DNA of 63,936 bases, counting the filler, from an uncultured Methanosarcinales archaeon (GTDB taxonomy: Archaea; Nanobdellota; Nanobdellia; Woesearchaeales; CAYXTQ01): the NCBI GenBank assembly GCA_964608065.1. It is 10 parts of 10 records of this genome, joined end to end, with 100 filler letters (N's around TTAATTAATTAA, not from the genome) between each part and the next. Parts side by side here need not be neighbours in the genome. Positions count along the whole stretch, not along the records: positions 53,556 to 59,754 come from CAZSMA010000086.1; 9 more parts are not named here. One strand, written 5' to 3'. Below are positions 52,533 through 58,890 of the stretch, piece after piece. Under the pieces are notes generated by a model. It did not search any database and was not told where the DNA came from. It saw nothing but the letters and a program-made list of their open reading frames with translations. Each line of letters starts with the position of its first letter. Within the stretch, counting starts at the first letter, position 1. Position numbers and translations under genes: made by a program.

Positions 52533-53455
52533 ATGTTAAAGAAACTATTTAGTTTACTGATTCTAACATTATTTTTGGCGAGTATGGTGTCTGTTTCTTT
52601 TGCAAAGAATGAGCAAACAGGCGTTATGGCAACAAACCAAATATCAGAAGGTCAAAAAGATGGGACAGATGATGAGGAAGTAAATGGCGTTGATGATGAG
52701 CCTGTTGATGAAGAAGCTCCAAAACCAACTTTAATAGCAGAACCTAAAAAACAATTAAAAAACATTGCAAACCAAGGAGTTGCAGCAAACATTAGAGAAC
52801 ATCAAAAAGATAGATTAATGTTAACTATAGAGAAATGCAAAGAGAATGAGATTGATCCTGAAAAATGCGAAGAACAATTAAGAAAAAGATTAGAATTAGT
52901 AAAGAATCTTGCTGAAAAAGACTTACAAATAATAACAAAAATACAAAGTAAAAGAACTGAACAAATACAAAATTTAGTAAAACTAAAAGAGAAAGAAACC
53001 TTTAAAAAATACAGCGAAGAAGGACTCAAAGCAAGAGTTATAGCTGAAGAAACATTAATAGGGGCAAGATTGAATTATGTTAAAGCTAAAGAAAACTACC
53101 AAAACTCTAAGAAAAATTATGTTAGCGCAAAAAACAAGTTTGAAGCATCAAAAGAATCTATAAAAAAATGCAAAGGGGACGATTCTGAAGAATGCATAAA
53201 TCAAAGAAGACTTATTAGAGCTCATTCTAAAGAACACTTAATGAATATCGCTGACTTAATACTAAAAGAGCTTGACAAGATAAAAAACAAGATTGAGTCT
53301 TCTGAGGATTTAGATGAGGAAGAAGCCAGTGAACTTCTAGGGAACATCAATGAAAGGATCACAAAAATCGGAGAAGCTAAAGTAGTTATAGAGAATCTAA
53401 ACAATGAAAGCACACAAGAAGATATAAAAGAAGCTGCTGAACTAGTAAGGGAAAC
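52533..53455 (+). CDS. Secreted coiled-coil protein (truncated)
   Basis: GGAGG RBS, signal peptide. Confidence 0.7.
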
Positions 53456-53555
53456 NNNNNNNNNNNNNNNNNNNNNNNNNNNNNNNNNNNNNNNNNNNNT
53501 TAATTAATTAANNNNNNNNNNNNNNNNNNNNNNNNNNNNNNNNNNNNNNNNNNNN

Positions 53556-53629
53556 ATCCCATTTTCATCAATTTTTTTAATACCCTCAAATCCCTTACTG
53601 GGACCTGATATTATAATTTGATTAGTCAT
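53556..53629 (-). CDS. Possible DinD/BRO-family N-terminus (truncated)
   Basis: MTNQIIISGPSKGFEGIKKIDENG. Confidence 0.45.
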
Positions 53630-53648
53630 AACCTTATTCTATGTTAAA

Positions 53649-53855
53649 TTAATTCGGGGACAGTCCCCCGTCCGCGGGGGCTGCCCCCGTCATCTGCAAT
53701 GATTTTGATTCGAAAAGAGGTTCCTGACAGGTGTTTTTTGCAAAAGAATTTGCTTTGGCATATTCCCGAAGCAATTTTCTTTGGGCGGGGATAGAATACC
53801 CCTCCTGTTTTTGTTCCTTAGAAGAAACACGGACATAGAGGATAGATTTTTGCAT
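53649..53855 (-). pseudogene. Truncated serine recombinase
   Basis: LYVRVSSKEQ..EGYSIPAQ catalytic N-terminus, then unrelated tail. Confidence 0.8.
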
Positions 53856-53856
53856 G

Positions 53857-54171
53857 TTATTTTTTAAAATAATTTAATTCTCTTAGTCTTCTGTCGGCTG
53901 TTTCTATTTCTTCATCACTAAATAATTTTTTGTATTTTTCTTTATTATCTATTATTAATGCCTCAACTGTTAAATCCAATCTGTCTAATTCGTATAATTC
54001 AGTAAAGCCACTCGAAGTATCATCTTTCGCAAGTAATTTTTTAGCCGTCCCAAGTCCGCCAAAATCATCAAGCATTTTTCTAAAATATCCCGGGTTATAT
54101 TTTGTCTCAGTTATAGTATTAGAATATATTCCCCACATATCCCTGTTGAATTGTAATTCCAATTTTTCCAT
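53857..54171 (-). CDS. Hypothetical protein of a kind often seen beside nucleases/defence genes
   Basis: F..ML...GG..TAKKLL...GF..L....RLDLTVEAL...LF..EEI..A..RL pattern (recalled, not searched). Confidence 0.6.
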   Translation of the reverse strand: MEKLELQFNRDMWGIYSNTITETKYNPGYFRKMLDDFGGLGTAKKLLAKDDTSSGFTELYELDRLDLTVEALIIDNKEKYKKLFSDEEIETADRRLRELNYFKK

Positions 54172-54181
54172 AAATTTTTAT

Positions 54182-55111
54182 TTAGTCTTTTATTATTTCT
54201 TGGAAGGCTTTCTTATAAACTAAATATTTAGGATTTACCGAATAAAGAAAACTGATTTTACCAGCCAAACTCTTTAAATATTTTTCTTTATCAATATTAA
54301 TATCATGTTCATTAAGAAAACCATCAACACCGAATTTTTTGCACAAGTATAGTTCTTTTCTTACTTTTTCTCTTATATTTTTATCCGCGTTCGGCTGATA
54401 ATTTATAATAAGCCCGGTACAAACTTGTCTTTGTTTATTGTCAGTAAATTCGGTTTTAATTTCGTTTAATTTGAATCCTGACTGCTGAAAAATTTTATAA
54501 ATAATATTTTTAAATTTTTTAATTGAGTGGCTACCAGATACAGTTAGATCATCTATCCAAAATGAATGCTTAAGTCCATAACGTTTTAATAGTTTGGTCA
54601 GCCGCATGTCCACTTCAAACAAAATTAATCCTGAAACTTTTGGACTTGTCCCAAATCCTTGAGGCAAATAAAAATCAGCTGTGGTAAGTCTGGTTAAAAG
54701 TCGAGATACATCTGGGCTACATTTTAAAAATCGGTAAACTTTATAAACTACATGATAATCTATGCTAGGGAAAAAATTTGCTATATCGAAATTAGCTACA
54801 TATTTTCTGCCGGAATGAATTGAGGCATTAGTAATAATAGATTTCCCGACTATTCCGCCTTGGATACTATTGGGATATTCAATACAGTCAAGCAATCTGT
54901 TAATTTTTTTATGGACTGTTTTTAAATTATTATTACAATTAAAAAACTTCCTTATTTTTTCCGTTCCATCCTTTTTTATAAATTTTTTATCAAATGTACG
55001 ATAGCTATTATCAATTTGCTCAGAAAGTTTTTCTAGGAAATCAGCCGGCAATTTTAATTGTAACGCCAGTTCGTTTATAGTATTGATATTTATAAACTGG
55101 CGTTTTTTCAT
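54182..55111 (-). CDS. Retron-type reverse transcriptase
   Basis: NASIH (region X NAxxH), DIANFFPSI, LPQGFGTSP, WIDD (YxDD position), VCTG (region Y). Confidence 0.9.
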   Translation of the reverse strand: MKKRQFININTINELALQLKLPADFLEKLSEQIDNSYRTFDKKFIKKDGTEKIRKFFNCNNNLKTVHKKINRLLDCIEYPNSIQGGIVGKSIITNASIHSGRKYVANFDIANFFPSIDYHVVYKVYRFLKCSPDVSRLLTRLTTADFYLPQGFGTSPKVSGLILFEVDMRLTKLLKRYGLKHSFWIDDLTVSGSHSIKKFKNIIYKIFQQSGFKLNEIKTEFTDNKQRQVCTGLIINYQPNADKNIREKVRKELYLCKKFGVDGFLNEHDINIDKEKYLKSLAGKISFLYSVNPKYLVYKKAFQEIIKD

Positions 55112-55455
55112 TTTTTGAGTTTTAATTTCAGCGTTCGTTCAGCAAATAAATTATGGGCTTTATCCACCATCTTATCTATCTGTTTTCTTATTTCTTTTTC
55201 TTCTTTTGTTTTTCCTTTTGGTAAATCTATCTTTTCCCAAATCAAAAGTACCAGCGGAATATTTAATAATTTAGCTATATTTTTGAGAAAATTAATACTA
55301 GGGTCCTTTTTATCATTTTCAACCAATGATATGTAATTTTTACTCACATCAAGCTTTTTGGCCAAATCATCTTGGCTCATCTTATGATTGACCCGGCCAA
55401 ACCTAATTAATGGTCCAATTGTAAGCATAATCTTTTTTAATTTTTTATATCCCAA
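55108..55455 (-). CDS. XRE/Cro-CI HTH protein
   Basis: MSQDDLAKKLDVSKNYISLVENDKKDPS; ATGA overlap with RT. Confidence 0.9.
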   Translation of the reverse strand: MGYKKLKKIMLTIGPLIRFGRVNHKMSQDDLAKKLDVSKNYISLVENDKKDPSINFLKNIAKLLNIPLVLLIWEKIDLPKGKTKEEKEIRKQIDKMVDKAHNLFAERTLKLKLKK

Positions 55456-55726
55456 TTGCCAATAATGGCATTAATTTATAACGGAAAAGCCACTTGCTGA
55501 TAATTTCTTTAATGATACTAATCACTACAACCGTTGTCTCCTTTACAAAATTAACACTGACTTTACTTTCTTTTAACAAAGAAAGTATTTGATTGTTAAT
55601 CTTTAAAGCCTCAGCAAGCAGGCCGAGAGCCTGACGATTTTTAATCTTCAACTTGGTTATTTTAAGTAATAACTTGTTAAAATTAATCAACAGGGTCATC
55701 ACTCTTTGTTTGTTTGTATATTTCAT
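55445..55726 (-). CDS. Small basic amphipathic protein, candidate retron effector
   Basis: AAAGGA RBS; overlaps HTH start; K/L/I-rich helices. Confidence 0.65.
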   Translation of the reverse strand: MKYTNKQRVMTLLINFNKLLLKITKLKIKNRQALGLLAEALKINNQILSLLKESKVSVNFVKETTVVVISIIKEIISKWLFRYKLMPLLAIGI

Positions 55727-55757
55727 ATGGTTTCCTTTAGTTAATATTTCTGATTAC

Positions 55758-55854
55758 AACGATTCGGCATCTTCTTTTATCGCAAGCCAACTACCAGCTC
55801 TCGGCTCTTTGGGGGTAAATTGGCCTGCGACTTAATTAAAGCGACAGAACCGTT
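55758..55854 (-). ncRNA. Structured leader, candidate retron msr/msd RNA
   Basis: Nested stems AACGGUUC/GAAUCGUU, UCGCAGGCCAAU/GUUGGCUUGCGA, UACC/GGUA, AGC/GCU; G-U pairs favour the minus strand. Confidence 0.65.
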
Positions 55855-56291
55855 AAACCTACGCAAATTAGTATAGTTATTGCTTATAGATTGTTTTACC
55901 TGTATCCAACATATTTTATTTGTAAAATATAATTTATAACTATTAAGCAATTAATGTTAGTGCTTAAATAATGTCAATTACAAACATTCAAATATATGCC
56001 GGGGCAAAATACCTTCTCTAACGAGAAGTAAGAGAAAAAAATCTCTTTTCAATCGGAGGGAAAATCCCTGTGAGAACTTGGGCTTACTCATTTTAGAGTG
56101 ATGTACTCTCTTATATTTACTTTCAAAGAGCTTAGAGGATGAATCATCCTCGCTTACTAACCTAGCATATATTAAAAATAAGTCAACATAGTTTGACTTA
56201 TAGTTATACACAGATATAAATTAATATGTTGCCACAGTTACTTTACTGTTGGGCTTTGACAAGTATTTTGTTTCTCTTAATCTTTCTTTTA

Positions 56292-57395
56292 TTATTCGTT
56301 TTGTATTAATCCGATATTAGCATAATTTCCTAAAGTAACCCAAGTTGGTTTACCAATTTTGCAAATTGTTCCTTTTTTCACTGTACCGTATATATTTGTC
56401 TGATCTTTGACAAGTTTAGTTATCGCAAGCCCACCAGAATTACCACTATCTATAATTGCTGTAGTAAAATAGGCCTCTAGAATATCACGACCCAAGTCAT
56501 CTTTTTCTCTCCCCGTATTACCGCTTATAATGCCATCCGTAATCGTTAATCTAGCAATATTGTTTACAACAGCATAACTGGGATATCCAAAAATATAAAC
56601 ATTCATACCGGTTTCCTTAAAGAGACAACCAGAAGTAATATTGTCTTGTACTCTTTTTTCTAAATCAGAACTACCATTAATTACTTGTTCTATATATAAA
56701 AATGCCGTGTCTATATTTCGTTCAGGCTCAAAGCCAAACCAAGCCAAGCTAGTCGCATATGTAGATTCAAATCCTGTTTTTTCAGACAAACCTACATAAG
56801 GTAAAGATACCGTACAGTTAATAGGAGGTGGATCAGTATGAATAGGGACAGAATCAAATATTATATGGGCATTTGTGGCTACCATATATTTACCCGAAAC
56901 TCCAGAAGATAATACTCCTGAGCCCGTTTGAGTATAATTATCAAAATAACATTTTACATAAACTATTTTTTGTGATATTTTAGCAACTTCTTCACTTGTA
57001 AGTTGATCGTGCGAATTAATTGTTTCTTTCTGAATTATAACAGGTGGCTTTTCCTTAAGTGCCTCTATCTCTTTTTTTAATTCTTCTATTAATTCTTCTG
57101 TAGAAGTTGCTTTAGTTTCGGGAGTAGAGGTTGCTTCAGTTAATCCCTTATTAGTTTCTTGTCCAGATTTAAAAAGAATAGAAGAAATATTATTTAATGC
57201 AGATTTAATTTCTCCTTTGTATTTGATTATTCCAATAGTAGCAACGACAGAAATAGAAATAAGTAAAATAATCACAATGAGAATTGGAATTTGAATAAAA
57301 CATTTTTGTTTAATTTTTTCTTCCATAAATTTATTCAATTTGAGCGCCAGTAATATAAGAATCTCTATCAAATTGATTAATTTCGTATACGGCAT
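56292..57395 (-). CDS. Trypsin-like serine protease, membrane anchored
   Basis: GSG, TNAHI, GYP, DSGNSGG. Confidence 0.85.
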   Translation of the reverse strand: MPYTKLINLIEILILLALKLNKFMEEKIKQKCFIQIPILIVIILLISISVVATIGIIKYKGEIKSALNNISSILFKSGQETNKGLTEATSTPETKATSTEELIEELKKEIEALKEKPPVIIQKETINSHDQLTSEEVAKISQKIVYVKCYFDNYTQTGSGVLSSGVSGKYMVATNAHIIFDSVPIHTDPPPINCTVSLPYVGLSEKTGFESTYATSLAWFGFEPERNIDTAFLYIEQVINGSSDLEKRVQDNITSGCLFKETGMNVYIFGYPSYAVVNNIARLTITDGIISGNTGREKDDLGRDILEAYFTTAIIDSGNSGGLAITKLVKDQTNIYGTVKKGTICKIGKPTWVTLGNYANIGLIQNE

Positions 57396-58890
57396 CTAAA
57401 TCCCATCCATTTCTATTTAAGGCCTCTATTGTTTTTATATATCTTTTTTCTCCAGTATCTCCTTGAGGATATAATTTATAAATTTTATCATCTCCTACAG
57501 CTCTTACTAATTCTGATGTAGTAAAAGAATCTATTACTGATTGCTCAATGTCCATAATGTCTTCCCATTTTAAATGTCCGTAATTATTAAATACAGATGG
57601 ACTAAGTACAAGTCGCTTAAATTTTTTATCACCAACATATTTCACAATATAAACATCTATACCATTTTTGGCACGAATAATAGCTCCTTCTGGAATCGAT
57701 TCTGGACCGTAGTGATAAATCCAATTCGCAACTTCAGAGTATCCATACTCAAAATCATCATCACAAGTCCAAGTATAAGGGTCCATCAGATCTGATTCAG
57801 CAAAAACTTGTATGTAATAATCACCGTATCCTTCGTCTAGTTTTATGGTACTTCTTAATGGCTTACCAATTGCACCATCCAACTTACCTGAGTATTCACT
57901 ATCATAAGGGTTTAAAGGTATTTCTTTCCCTATATGATACCAATAAACTGGTGTTTGAAGGTTGTCTATGGGACAATTTACAGGACGGATATATTCTGAT
58001 GCTGGTACACCATCTAATTCGATATATAAATAATTATAATCGTTAGTTTTGTTTAAATCTAATTCATCTTCTGAATATATTAGCGTATCACCCTCTTGAG
58101 ACATACTTTCAAATGGATATATATGTAGTTTAGCTTTAGACATATCTACAATTTGAAATTTACTAGTATCAATATCTATTGGCGTCAAGGTGTTGGGCTC
58201 TATACTCTTTATAGTTTGTTCATATTGATTCCCAAGTAAATTTGTTAACCAGTTTTTCAAATAATCGATATTGAGGATATAGCTTATATTGTTTAGTTTT
58301 CCTTTAATTACTGCCGTAGGAATGCCGATAAATTTTCCTATAGAATTATAAGCAGCACCGCCCGAATTACCTTGTTCTAACGGAGTTGTAGTTTTTATAT
58401 ACTCATCTAAATAACCGCTCATAATTCCCGAAGTATATGTTAGCGTCGCTCCGCCAATCGAGGGAAATCCTATGGCTTCTATTTTTTCACCCAAGGACAA
58501 GGAGCCGGTAGAATCTGAGAATATATCAATATATGGAAATACATAATCATTCTTATTGTCCATGTACACTATAGCTGCGTCGTAGGTGGTAGAATAATAT
58601 TTTGTTTCTGCCACATAATCAAAACTTGGTTTATCAGATATCGAAGAAATAGTGCCAACAGCACATTTAGAAATAATATTGTTATATTTGTCAGTAACAA
58701 CATGTTTATTGGTCAATATTATTCCCTTAGGATCAATTATTGTTCCTGATCCCATAAACCAATTACCATAATCATCGGGACAAATTAATTGAACTTCAGC
58801 GTTAATTTGACTCTGCGTAACTGCATTGATAGAAGCAAGTGGAATTAATCCTAAAATAATTAAGAATGATAAAATTATAATTTTTTTCAT
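57331..58890 (-). CDS. Secreted trypsin-like serine protease with CPR-type C-terminal domain
   Basis: GSGTII, TNKHVV, GNSGG; tail IPEGAIIRA...KFKRLVLSPSVFNNYGHLKWED. Confidence 0.88.
   Translation of the reverse strand: MKKIIILSFLIILGLIPLASINAVTQSQINAEVQLICPDDYGNWFMGSGTIIDPKGIILTNKHVVTDKYNNIISKCAVGTISSISDKPSFDYVAETKYYSTTYDAAIVYMDNKNDYVFPYIDIFSDSTGSLSLGEKIEAIGFPSIGGATLTYTSGIMSGYLDEYIKTTTPLEQGNSGGAAYNSIGKFIGIPTAVIKGKLNNISYILNIDYLKNWLTNLLGNQYEQTIKSIEPNTLTPIDIDTSKFQIVDMSKAKLHIYPFESMSQEGDTLIYSEDELDLNKTNDYNYLYIELDGVPASEYIRPVNCPIDNLQTPVYWYHIGKEIPLNPYDSEYSGKLDGAIGKPLRSTIKLDEGYGDYYIQVFAESDLMDPYTWTCDDDFEYGYSEVANWIYHYGPESIPEGAIIRAKNGIDVYIVKYVGDKKFKRLVLSPSVFNNYGHLKWEDIMDIEQSVIDSFTTSELVRAVGDDKIYKLYPQGDTGEKRYIKTIEALNRNGWDLDAVYEINQFDRDSYITGAQIE

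Follow-up and report, generated by a model that had tools for sequence, protein, structure and literature searches.

Conserved complementarity between a leader hairpin loop and codons of the small-protein gene in a type VI retron from a Patescibacteria-like genome

The type VI retron locus

The window, that is, the whole analysed stretch of 63,936 nt, carries on its minus strand a structured leader that precedes a gene encoding a 93-aa small protein (SP), followed by HTH and reverse transcriptase (RT) genes. The host genome is AT-rich and Patescibacteria-like. The genes and the signals read around them are as follows.

54182..55111, minus strand: RT gene, encoding a 309-aa retron reverse transcriptase; its start and the HTH stop share 4 nt
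55108..55428, minus strand: HTH gene; relatives have an ATG aligned to the one at 55428, while the ORF list starts it at TTG 55455
55445..55726, minus strand: SP ORF of 93 aa, putative effector, from the ORF list
55724..55736, minus strand: RBS-like purine run (55736-55733) and SP start codon (55726-55724), read from the sequence
56159..56186, minus strand: candidate promoter, with a -35-like hexamer (56186-56181) and an extended -10-like element (56167-56159)

The best PADLOC model for the RT is RT_VI (2e-64, 215.5 bits), with RT_III-A as the runner-up (1.1e-62). The protein also matches Pfam RVT_1 (2e-14), and its matches to retron RTs in NCBIfam are all below the threshold. The HTH protein, of the Cro/C1 type, matches PADLOC HTH_VI (1.8e-22) and Pfam HTH_3 (1.2e-13). 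SP could not be assigned to any family in Pfam, PADLOC or NCBIfam, and has ten protein relatives with 56-67% identity. Its predicted structure is helical, with a mean pLDDT of 67.8, and hence the model is too weak for a fold search. The toxicity of SP is predicted solely from Retron-Vpa2 and Retron-Sen3.

For comparison, we used 12 loci obtained from one genome scan. In eight of these 12 fetched loci, tblastn matches to SP lie upstream of HTH-RT. The fit of RT and HTH to the type VI models and the conserved SP-HTH-RT order identify the locus as a type VI retron, and this membership predicts that it would produce RT-dependent ssDNA and act in phage defence. The RT has 76 protein relatives, of which roughly 60, at 48-84% identity, were covered as proteins alone, and the named ones come from Parcubacteria, Falkowbacteria, Bacilli, and Pseudomonadota MAGs. 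A search of the plasmid collection with the RT protein returned 191 records, of which the best 15 all had less than 35% identity and no visible type VI locus; the annotated matches among these 15 were retron RTs of the Ec67 and St85 families or generic reverse transcriptases. A scan of positions 53000-57000 against Rfam with E up to 10 yielded six matches, all weak and irrelevant, and none to a retron RNA family.

Both hexamers of the candidate promoter fall within blocks conserved across the window and loci L001-L008 in the upstream alignment, and the transcript probably starts there. This conserved pair was not among the 15 promoter-like sites listed by a generic promoter and terminator scan, with 13.1 expected. 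The position of the pair upstream of the 5' stem-loop, together with helices that span the leader and the ORF, is consistent with a single RNA. Another conserved dyad-like block is located immediately upstream of the -35 hexamer.

Leader structure and the P6 loop

The leader includes a covarying 5' stem-loop, inverted repeats, and msr- and msd-like hairpins. Its elements are listed in the order of transcription.

56135..56151, minus strand: leader paired element; 5 pairs, 3 of them altered in both strands; across 10 loci, 100% of cells are paired
56118..56131, minus strand: 5' inverted repeat (a1-like); its core 56131-56124 pairs with loop bases 55811-55804
56072..56078, minus strand: 7-nt element directly ahead of the first msr-like stem-loop; partner 55802-55796 in the loop
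56013..56069, minus strand: three short conserved msr-like stem-loops (56069-56057, 56047-56030, and 56028-56013), from folds of nine loci and the window
55863..56009, minus strand: long msd-like hairpin (~56009-55894) and small variable hairpin (55883-55863), from folds; alignment columns poorly conserved
55757..55855, minus strand: leader hairpin P6, with the basal stem 55855-55847 with 55765-55757, the upper stem 55831-55819 with 55791-55779, and the loop 55818-55792, from the RNAalifold consensus
55796..55811, minus strand: loop hub (a2-like), with complements in the 5' inverted repeat, in the 7-nt element, in an element of the coding sequence (CDS) and, to a weaker degree, in the SP 3' region

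Pairs were formally counted in ten loci, whereas L009 and L011 were assessed by swap tests, as the MAFFT alignment of all 12 loci misaligned the P6 loop and the ORF in both. Among the msr-like stem-loops, the second (56047-56030) has two compensatory pairs in the helix scan. The long hairpin varies both in sequence and in length, and may be called msd by analogy only.

P6 is the leader hairpin of the first-pass annotation of this DNA. Its upper stem has 13 pairs, two of them compensatory and 96.9% paired; in L009, as read from the sequence, the stem is retained and three of its inner pairs differ in both strands. P6 is conserved with an open loop of 23-28 nt, about 25 nt long in the window. 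The same annotation described a mini-stem at the apex, around loop bases 55803-55799. This mini-stem does exist in the window, but is absent from the other nine loci with the element, where its 3' side differs and the segment simply lies within the open loop. With the apex mini-hairpin seen in just one of ten loci, the originally suggested kissing complex of two small hairpin loops finds no clear support.

The P6 loop holds the 3' inverted repeat of the retron. With the 5' repeat, it forms 13 pairs (two compensatory, 91.5% paired); in swap tests, duplexes within a locus range from -11.5 to -19.9 kcal/mol, and those between the main clade and L009 or L011 from -2.7 to -7.4 kcal/mol. With the 7-nt element, the loop forms seven pairs (three compensatory, 98.6% paired), a helix also picked up by the unbiased scan; here the swap test was ambiguous between clades. 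Both the 5' repeat and the 7-nt element co-evolve with the loop. Because the 5' inverted repeat has the leader loop as its 3' partner, the earlier wording "a1/a2-like pairing" turned out to be apt.

The elements that lie in or pair with the coding region are the following.

56095..56103, minus strand: leader strand of the second leader-CDS helix; partner 55705-55697; a perfect 9-mer in the window
55697..55705, minus strand: CDS strand of the second leader-CDS helix, SP codons 8-10, covarying
55611..55633, minus strand: codon-embedded RNA element, SP codons 32-39, with the local hairpin 55633-55619; 55631-55622 are complementary to the loop hub (9-10 nt), and the 3' half 55621-55611 pairs with 55500-55490
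55564..55587, minus strand: covarying hairpin within the SP ORF; 10 pairs, 5 compensatory, from the unbiased scan in seven lineages
55490..55500, minus strand: SP 3' region strand, paired with the 3' half of the CDS element and recovered by the helix scan

An RNA-level element in the SP codons

The observation that started this analysis was an exact match between the leader loop and the putative toxin gene. It is correct as described: on the minus strand, leader bases 55805-55797 match 55630-55622 of the 93-aa ORF as an exact reverse complement, 55828-55822 do so with 55624-55618, and the coding side forms a hairpin at 55633-55619 with five base pairs and a 5-nt loop. The coordinates also place the RBS and the start codon between the paired segments. 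A perfect leader-CDS 9-mer of any composition is common by chance (640 of 1000 dinucleotide shuffles), and the window holds a second one. The flagged match was, however, said to be G+C-rich in AT-rich DNA, and in this respect it stands out, as a 9-mer with at least seven G or C was found in none of 1000 dinucleotide-shuffled CDS (the window has 31% G+C). When the window loop was compared with shuffled CDS, 3 of 500 shuffles were equally good. The duplex energy of the whole leader with the whole CDS is unremarkable, with 171 of 200 shuffles equal or better.

The complementarity is kept in 10 of 12 related loci. In these ten, the best duplex of the loop with the CDS is located at the codon element, with 2-24 of 500 shuffles equally good, and the helix is 99% paired across ten pairs. 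In L009 and L011, the most distant loci, complementarity is absent at the homologous position (-4.6 and -6.0 kcal/mol), and a search of the entire ORF found no significant duplex in L009 (244 of 500 shuffles equal) or in L011 (385 of 500, with the whole hairpin rather than the loop as the query). The SP alignment compared with the SP of L009 by hhalign gave a probability of 1.1%.

The coding side of this helix hardly changes. The codon element is identical over 21 nt in eight of nine loci, L002 having two changes, and the five consecutive SP codons 33-37 each use a single codon in all nine. Among the other invariant degenerate columns, just 3 of 18 use one codon (Fisher p 0.0017 compared with codons 33-37, a value that, like the other p-values, is indicative since only about seven independent lineages and L010 were available). 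Moreover, the codons are rare ones in the window, CTC, CTG, and GGC making up 3.4%, 6.0%, and 10.5% of their families, and the probability of the codon string under the window usage is 1.6e-6. The 11-nt core is identical even in L010, though the SP proteins compare at BLASTP E = 19; no HTH gene adjoins the RT in that locus. The codon element is therefore under RNA-level constraint, being held constant at synonymous sites and frozen at the nucleotide level.

In the flagged helix itself, none of the ten pairs is changed on both sides (six are invariant, and four vary on one side). The sole coding-side change, in the tenth pair in L002, breaks the pair. In a different reading, the codon element is kept for its own structure, both locally and within the gene, and as an RNA hairpin bound by protein in the RT-HTH-RNA complex, the loop has the 5' repeats as its only true partners, and its match to the codons is a by-product of a reused purine/pyrimidine motif. 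Similar short motifs are indeed repeated in the leader, and covariation joins the loop to the 5' repeat and to the 7-nt element but is lacking with the coding element. The SP 3' region supplies a separate partner for the 3' half of that element, with 11 pairs, two of them compensatory (both from L010), and ~96% paired. Local hairpins are predicted as well: the short coding hairpin, which has a loop of just 5 nt, has five pairs, one compensatory, and is fully paired in 8 of 10 loci, and its outer G-C pair flips in L010. The coding bases have further conserved partners in a longer local hairpin and in both arms of P6. Finally, purification of the Retron-Vpa2 hyRNA brings down RT and HTH with it, according to the preprint (10.1101/2025.10.22.683967). 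Still, in 10 of 10 loci not one of the five bases in the hairpin loop varies, two synonymous positions among them, and a stem alone fails to explain this. By our own estimate, an exact 9-nt complement between a 25-nt loop and a ~27-nt element has a chance of ~1e-3, and no shuffle reached it at this G+C. The two loop substitutions of L010 within the nine-base core both lead to G-U pairs with unchanged coding bases, retaining the pairing. We consider this by-product reading rather unlikely, and the flagged match a real, conserved, and probably functional RNA element.

The element might also act as DNA, either as an operator bound by a dimer of the HTH protein, the dyad having a 5-bp spacer, or as an intrinsic terminator of antisense transcription. 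The DNA does form a 5-bp dyad, and the plus-strand scan lists a terminator-like hairpin with a T-rich tail, but the latter is a mere complement of Lys and Asp codons, and in L010, as read from the sequence, the hairpin is followed by no T run on the antisense strand. L010 keeps the core with no HTH gene beside the RT, the dyad is broken in L002, and the conserved dyad-like block just upstream of the -35 is a better operator candidate. Both DNA-level readings are highly improbable, and we set them aside.

Other parts of the ORF are also tied to the leader. The second leader-CDS helix involves SP codons 8-10; its leader strand shifts by 1-2 alignment columns between subgroups, and so the helix was assessed by duplex and swap tables. 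In other loci both strands differ yet pair, with compensation at three codon third positions. Own-locus duplexes range from -11.1 (L002) to -17.9 kcal/mol, while swaps between the window/L003 type and the type of L001, L004, L006, and L008 give -7.2 to -11.6 kcal/mol, the exception being the window linker with the L006 CDS (-15.6 kcal/mol). The suggestion that the retron leader and the effector ORF are coupled is thus supported by the covarying codon 8-10 helix and by the synonymous constraint, but not by compensatory changes in the flagged helix.

Folding programs are of limited help here. The pseudoknot-free folds of whole hyRNA-length regions do not decide between the alternatives. In nested thermodynamic ensembles, the loop-CDS pairing has a probability of ~0 in seven of eight loci and 0.08 in L001; these ensembles favour closed P6 and the local hairpin, and such programs cannot represent a contact of a loop with a distant strand while P6 is closed. 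The RBS and the start codon are unpaired in the window fold. In a leader-only fold, the RBS is joined to part of the 5' inverted repeat; by our reading of the alignments, the other loci have no matching complement. RNAalifold found no consensus structure at the RBS or the start codon, and several relatives have no RBS-like purine run at the aligned position of the alignment.

A possible switch and known systems

We propose that the P6 loop is a hub that can pair either with the 5' repeats of the retron or with the toxin codons, the codon element being a cis decoy of the 5' repeats. The evidence leaves this reading about evenly balanced between true and false. The window duplexes with the loop have energies of -21.7 kcal/mol for the CDS element, -16.3 for the SP 3' region, -13.5 for the 5' repeat, and -11.1 for the 7-nt element, so that the duplex with the codon element would be by far the most stable. 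When bound to the loop, the codon element would close off an arm in which the first 31 codons lie together with the RBS and the start codon. The occupied loop would be unavailable to the 5' repeats, which prepare the priming of reverse transcription; the low basal msDNA that has been reported in other type VI retrons would agree with this. If the loop and the 5' strand of P6 were then taken by the RT/HTH complex or by cDNA synthesis, the coding element would be freed and SP could be made; the converse, a passing ribosome releasing the loop, would also be possible. The switch is plausible, and we infer the formation of the loop-CDS duplex, its exclusivity with the 5' repeats, and the direction of switching.

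A stronger version would make the 16-nt loop the decision point of the retron. If the toxin-codon element is a decoy of the 5' priming repeats, then RT priming and toxin translation would be mutually exclusive uses of one RNA, and the decoy may be older and better conserved than the toxin protein itself. The age of the decoy is read from L010, where the element is identical, SP has no detectable protein similarity, and the HTH is missing. We regard this version as possible, but on balance doubtful.

A third reading assigns the functional contact to DNA and RNA, as has been proposed for Retron-Vpa2: accumulating msDNA would open the coding hairpin, and the RNA-RNA loop match would be secondary. 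If the 5' strand of P6 were the 3' end of the template, the cDNA would complement the 5' arm of the coding hairpin, as this arm is a direct repeat of the P6 arm. In 7 of 9 loci, the two arms do repeat each other directly over 6-7 nt, and the site, beside the 3' inverted repeat, would sit at the msDNA 5' end, where Zhang et al. place a conserved 7-nt direct repeat required for SP translation in the available text of their preprint (10.1101/2025.10.22.683967); there, msDNA made in trans derepresses SP. However, the direct repeat is shortened in the window and broken in L002, copying of the P6 5' strand is an assumption made by analogy, the invariant hairpin-loop bases are left unexplained, and the Vpa2 repeats are described, as far as that text goes, in loops rather than stems (10.1101/2025.10.22.683967). 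We deem a primary DNA-RNA contact decidedly unlikely. This reading is compatible with the RNA hub.

The general idea of the first-pass annotation is the published hyRNA model of type VI retrons, and a hybrid ncRNA/mRNA architecture with long-range pairing of the SP region is already described for Retron-Vpa2 and Retron-Sen3 in the accessible text of preprints from 2025 and 2026. On how reverse transcription leads to the release of a small toxin in type VI retrons, the two preprints, so far as they are accessible, differ, one placing the control at translation and the other after it. The present lineage supplies a compact candidate link, a single hairpin loop that could engage the 5' repeats of the retron or a codon-frozen element of 9-10 nt, and it has a second leader-codon helix that already has compensatory evidence. 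If the competition is true, a few point mutations with compensations would separate priming from translation, and the motif could be searched for in other retron types. The locus extends a hyRNA-like architecture to Patescibacteria-like genomes, and its SP ORF is a clear example of codons constrained more by RNA structure than by protein.

In canonical retrons, the 5' repeat (a1) pairs with a 3' repeat (a2), the two flank the template, and their pairing covaries. Here the 5' repeat likewise pairs with a 3' repeat and covaries with it; unlike the canonical arrangement, a conserved hairpin carries the 3' repeat in its loop, and the repeat has an extra partner inside the effector ORF. Loop-mediated RNA contacts that grow into longer duplexes are known, as is the silencing of toxin mRNAs, hok among them, by long-range 5'-3' pairing. 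Similar stems with complementary loops and a toxin mRNA that would be held closed by long-range pairing recall these systems by analogy, whereas the contact described here is intramolecular, occurs in a retron RNA, is coupled to the reverse-transcription template, and is known from sequence alone.

In relatives of Retron-Sen3, long-range pairing links the ncRNA and the SP region and alternative conformations are proposed, as stated in the available text (Garcia-Rodriguez et al., bioRxiv 10.64898/2026.04.27.721009). To the extent of that text, our locus resembles the Sen3/cl2075 group in its long variable internal hairpin, the long-range pairing of ncRNA and SP region, and the alternative conformations, which in both cases are proposed. 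The SP ORF is under RNA structural selection in both, as seen from 18 covarying pairs in Sen3/cl2075 and from a 10-bp covarying hairpin and two long-range helices here. The partner, though, lies here in codons 32-35, and a further helix at codons 8-10 covaries. The control in Retron-Sen3 is reported, in the text available, as post-translational (10.64898/2026.04.27.721009), and, as far as can be told from it, our SP family falls outside the named Sen3/cl2075 study clusters.

A further close parallel is Retron-Vpa2. As described in the accessible part of the preprint, its hyRNA has three arms joined by inverted repeats, its non-coding part represses SP translation, and msDNA releases the repression; the study lists 81 hyRNA hits (Zhang et al., bioRxiv 10.1101/2025.10.22.683967). 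Measured against that description, the differences are that the contacts here are inside the ORF (codons 8-10 and 32-39), whereas those of Vpa2 are described with stem-loops at the RBS and start and with a wrap-back of the 3' end; that the flagged elements lie in inverted orientation on the RNA, while in Vpa2 the pair is directly repeated and is proposed to work by way of msDNA; and that the RBS has no visible sequestration in the window, the host is Patescibacteria-like, and the evidence comes from sequence only. The likenesses, again relative to the text available, are the SP-HTH-RT operon, the single structured RNA, predicted here, with both a reverse-transcription template and the SP ORF, the arms that meet at a node via inverted repeats, and the conserved short repeats in loops. 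We also count as a likeness the repression of SP by the non-coding part, which at our locus is predicted by analogy. Long-range inverted repeats that tie the non-coding part to the SP region, a hyRNA trait, are present here as the helices at codons 8-10 and 32-35.

Retron locus and its relatives

The retron locus of the window consists of a leader followed by three genes:

about 56157-55727, minus strand: leader of ~430 nt, first in locus order
55726-55445, minus strand: ORF of a 93-aa small protein (SP), the putative effector, from the ORF list
55428-55108, minus strand: HTH gene (HTH_VI, 1.8e-22; Pfam HTH_3)
55111-54182, minus strand: reverse transcriptase (RT), 309 aa (RT_VI as the best defence-system model; Pfam RVT_1)

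This gene order is the SP-HTH-RT layout known for type VI retrons, as given in the accessible text of Garcia-Rodriguez et al. (2026; bioRxiv 10.64898/2026.04.27.721009). Among the defence-system models, RT_VI scored best for the RT (2e-64), with RT_III-A nearly equal (1.1e-62). SP had no family match in Pfam, PADLOC or NCBIfam, and its AlphaFold model is weak (pLDDT 67.8). By analogy with its relatives, SP may be toxic, and the locus may produce msDNA and function in defence.

Downstream of the RT (53649-54171) are a 104-aa ORF without a family and then a 68-aa resolvase-like fragment, which matches only the N-terminus of serine resolvases (Pfam, 5e-5) and adjoins a masked run (X in translations); these ORFs may be left over from a mobile element. 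Immediately upstream of the retron are two large ORFs (367 and 519 aa; 56292-58890, minus strand) with signal-peptide-like N-termini.

The RT has 76 protein relatives, of which the few with a named source trace to Parcubacteria, Falkowbacteria, Bacilli and Pseudomonadota MAGs; SP has 10, at 56-67% identity. One genome scan yielded twelve related loci (L001-L012). SP, HTH and RT occur together in 8 of the 12 (L001-L008; tblastn with SP). L009 and L011 carry HTH and RT, and their small ORF looks unrelated to SP; in L010 (920-2167) a small ORF directly precedes the RT, and an HTH gene is absent from the vicinity; L012 is a fragment only. The main clade was counted as seven lineages, since L004 and L005 are 99% identical, as are L006 and L007. 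In L002, SP is frameshifted and has stop codons (about 1470-1560); either the gene is decaying or the assembly is wrong here.

Leader architecture and the P6 loop

The common architecture of the leader, derived from folds of nine loci and from alignments, is as follows:

56186-56181 and 56167-56159, minus strand: element 1, conserved promoter-like pair
56151-56135, minus strand: element 2, 5' stem-loop, three of its five pairs compensatory
56131-56118, minus strand: element 3, 5' inverted repeat, followed by a linker (element 4)
56078-56072, minus strand: element 5, 7-nt element
56069-56013, minus strand: element 6, three short conserved stem-loops
about 56009-55894, minus strand: element 7, long hairpin of variable sequence and length, followed by a small variable hairpin (element 8)
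55855-55757, minus strand: element 9, P6, conserved hairpin with a 23-28-nt loop

Just upstream of the -35-like hexamer, a block with a dyad-like repeat (56187-56213, minus strand) is conserved in the window and in L001-L008; it is a better candidate for the HTH operator than the hairpin in the SP coding region. When the leader is folded alone, three stretches at or just upstream of the RBS-like run (55733-55747) pair with three others, all of them short, within the 5' inverted repeat or directly behind it (56113-56129). This was seen in the window alone, and by our own reading of the alignments the pairing is not conserved in the relatives.

The partner of the 5' inverted repeat is the 5' half of the P6 loop (window core 56131-56124 with 55811-55804, an exact 8 bp). 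Over ten loci this helix has 13 pairs, two of them compensatory, and is 91.5% paired. The repeat and the loop of L009 and L011 have quite different sequences, yet match each other. Own-locus combinations yielded -11.5 to -19.9 kcal/mol, compared with -2.7 to -7.4 kcal/mol for swaps between the main clade and L009/L011 in both directions. Given the swap test and the covariation, the P6 loop therefore represents the 3' inverted repeat, similar to a2. The 3' half of the loop (55802-55796) pairs with the 7-nt element (7 pairs, 3 compensatory, 98.6% paired), and this pairing was recovered independently by an unbiased scan for conserved complementary runs; its cross-clade swap result is ambiguous. 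A helix with a stretch inside SP, referred to here as the coding element, would draw on the same loop bases (55805-55796).

Predicted duplexes of the P6 loop in the window
Coding element: -21.7 kcal/mol (strongest in the window)
SP 3' region: -16.3 kcal/mol
5' inverted repeat: -13.5 kcal/mol
7-nt element: -11.1 kcal/mol

The coding element and its predicted pairing with the loop

The complementarity between leader and ORF proposed in the first-pass annotation is present in the window: on the minus strand, 55805-55797 and 55630-55622 are exact reverse complements, a second match joins 55828-55822 and 55624-55618 just as exactly, and a 5-bp hairpin (55633-55619) is possible in the ORF segment. 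The leader segment lies within a hairpin with the upper stem 55831-55819 with 55791-55779. The apex mini-hairpin as originally drawn occurs in the window alone and is absent from the relatives. On the plus strand, a T-rich tail complementary to Lys/Asp codons comes after the coding hairpin (55619-55643), which a scan classes as terminator-like.

Of 1000 shuffled ORFs, 640 contained a perfect 9-mer complement to the leader, and the window has two; none of the 1000 had one with at least seven G/C, at a window G+C of 31%. The duplex energy of the whole leader with the whole ORF is unremarkable, as 171 of 200 shuffles were equally good. For the P6 loop, the coding element is the best ORF duplex in 10 of the 12 loci. 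Shuffles reaching the observed energy (out of 500) numbered 3 in the window, 2 in L001, 22 in L002, 24 in L003, 3 in L004, 3 in L005, 5 in L006, 6 in L007, 9 in L008 and 7 in L010. No significant duplex was found in L009 (244/500) or in L011 (385/500, using the whole hairpin rather than the loop). At the homologous position, the duplex has -19 to -26 kcal/mol in ten loci, versus -4.6 in L009 and -6.0 in L011.

On the ten-locus alignment, the helix of 55805-55796 with 55631-55622 is 99% paired, with no pair changed on both sides, six invariant and four varying on one side. Both loop substitutions in the nine-base core of L010 lead to G-U pairs with unchanged coding bases, and the sole coding-side change, in L002, removes the tenth pair. 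The second match is 97% paired in the relatives, but has no compensatory changes and two pairs broken in L010. It is conceivable, though we consider it rather unlikely, that the coding element is locally structured or protein-bound and its match to the loop incidental.

Judged from codon usage and alignments, the coding element is constrained at the RNA level. Around the site, 21 nt are identical in 8 of 9 loci, L002 having two changes. At SP codons 33-37 (Ala, Leu, Gly, Leu, Leu), each position has the same codon in 9/9 loci, with a different codon for each of the three Leu; 2-4 codons occur at the other invariant Leu columns. By hand count, single-codon use occurs in 3 of 18 other invariant degenerate columns (Fisher p 0.0017, indicative since the lineages are not independent). 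The codons are rare in the long ORFs of the window (CTC 3.4%, CTG 6.0% and GGC 10.5% of their families), giving the string a probability of 1.6e-6 under window usage. L002, whose frameshift lies upstream of the element, retains it with these two base changes. In L010 an 11-nt core is identical at a similar distance from the start, while BLASTP detected no similarity of the L010 small protein to SP (E = 19). As this locus keeps the core without an HTH gene, roles at the DNA level are weakened; moreover, by our own reading, no T run follows the hairpin on its antisense strand, and we regard such a role as very improbable.

Other parts of SP also pair. The second perfect 9-mer of the window joins 56103-56095 with SP codons 8-10 (55705-55697) and covaries: both strands differ between subgroups with pairing retained, and in three successive codons it is the third base that carries the compensation. 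Own-locus duplexes range from -11.1 (L002) to -17.9 kcal/mol, and swaps between the window/L003 type and the L001, L004, L006, L008 type from -7.2 to -11.6 kcal/mol, except for the window linker with the L006 coding sequence (-15.6 kcal/mol). A helix of 11 pairs, 2 of them compensatory, joins the 3' half of the coding element (55621-55611) to 55500-55490, and a hairpin within the ORF (55587-55564; 10 bp, 5 compensatory over seven lineages) showed the strongest covariation in the unbiased scan. The ORF is therefore woven into the RNA structure. A small G+C-rich hairpin at the last SP codons (55457-55470), terminator-like in the plus-strand scan and with a stem conserved in the relatives, might serve to mark the 3' end of the leader-SP transcript or to protect it.

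Topology and comparison with known retrons

Three helices are mutually nested: 5' repeat and 5' half of the loop, coding element and 3' half of the loop, and 55621/55500. Formed together, they would create a three-arm node, with the template side in one arm, the RBS, start codon and first 31 codons in another, and the remaining ORF in the third. Three other helices that show covariation, namely the P6 stem, the 7-nt-element helix and the codon 8-10 helix, are crossed by this set, so the RNA must either be pseudoknotted or alternate between conformations. Pseudoknot-free folding favours a closed P6 and the local coding hairpin, with a loop-ORF pairing probability of about 0 in 7 of 8 loci and 0.08 in L001; it neither supports nor excludes the loop contact. 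We infer that the coding element would be a decoy of the 5' repeats of the retron for the a2-like loop, so that priming of reverse transcription and accessibility of the SP message would be coupled. A DNA-RNA contact made by msDNA, modelled on what the accessible text of Zhang et al. (2025; bioRxiv 10.1101/2025.10.22.683967) proposes for Retron-Vpa2, seems improbable to us.

Literature searches on type VI retron translation and msDNA and on retron hybrid RNA turned up no further primary work on this RNA. In the accessible text of the Zhang and Garcia-Rodriguez preprints we found neither a contact to the 3' inverted repeat from within the ORF, nor its competition with the 5' repeats, nor a Patescibacteria-like lineage. 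The same parts of both preprints describe a hybrid ncRNA/mRNA whose non-coding part represses a small toxin, and the concept of its release by reverse transcription. The general switch concept is already known, and the window holds a possibly new variant of it. According to the available text of Garcia-Rodriguez et al., relatives of Retron-Sen3 also have the 5' stem-loop first, then the 5' repeat and then the long variable hairpin, and their SP region is likewise interwoven with RNA structure. The node proposed for the window resembles the three-arm description of the Vpa2 hybrid RNA in the available part of Zhang et al.
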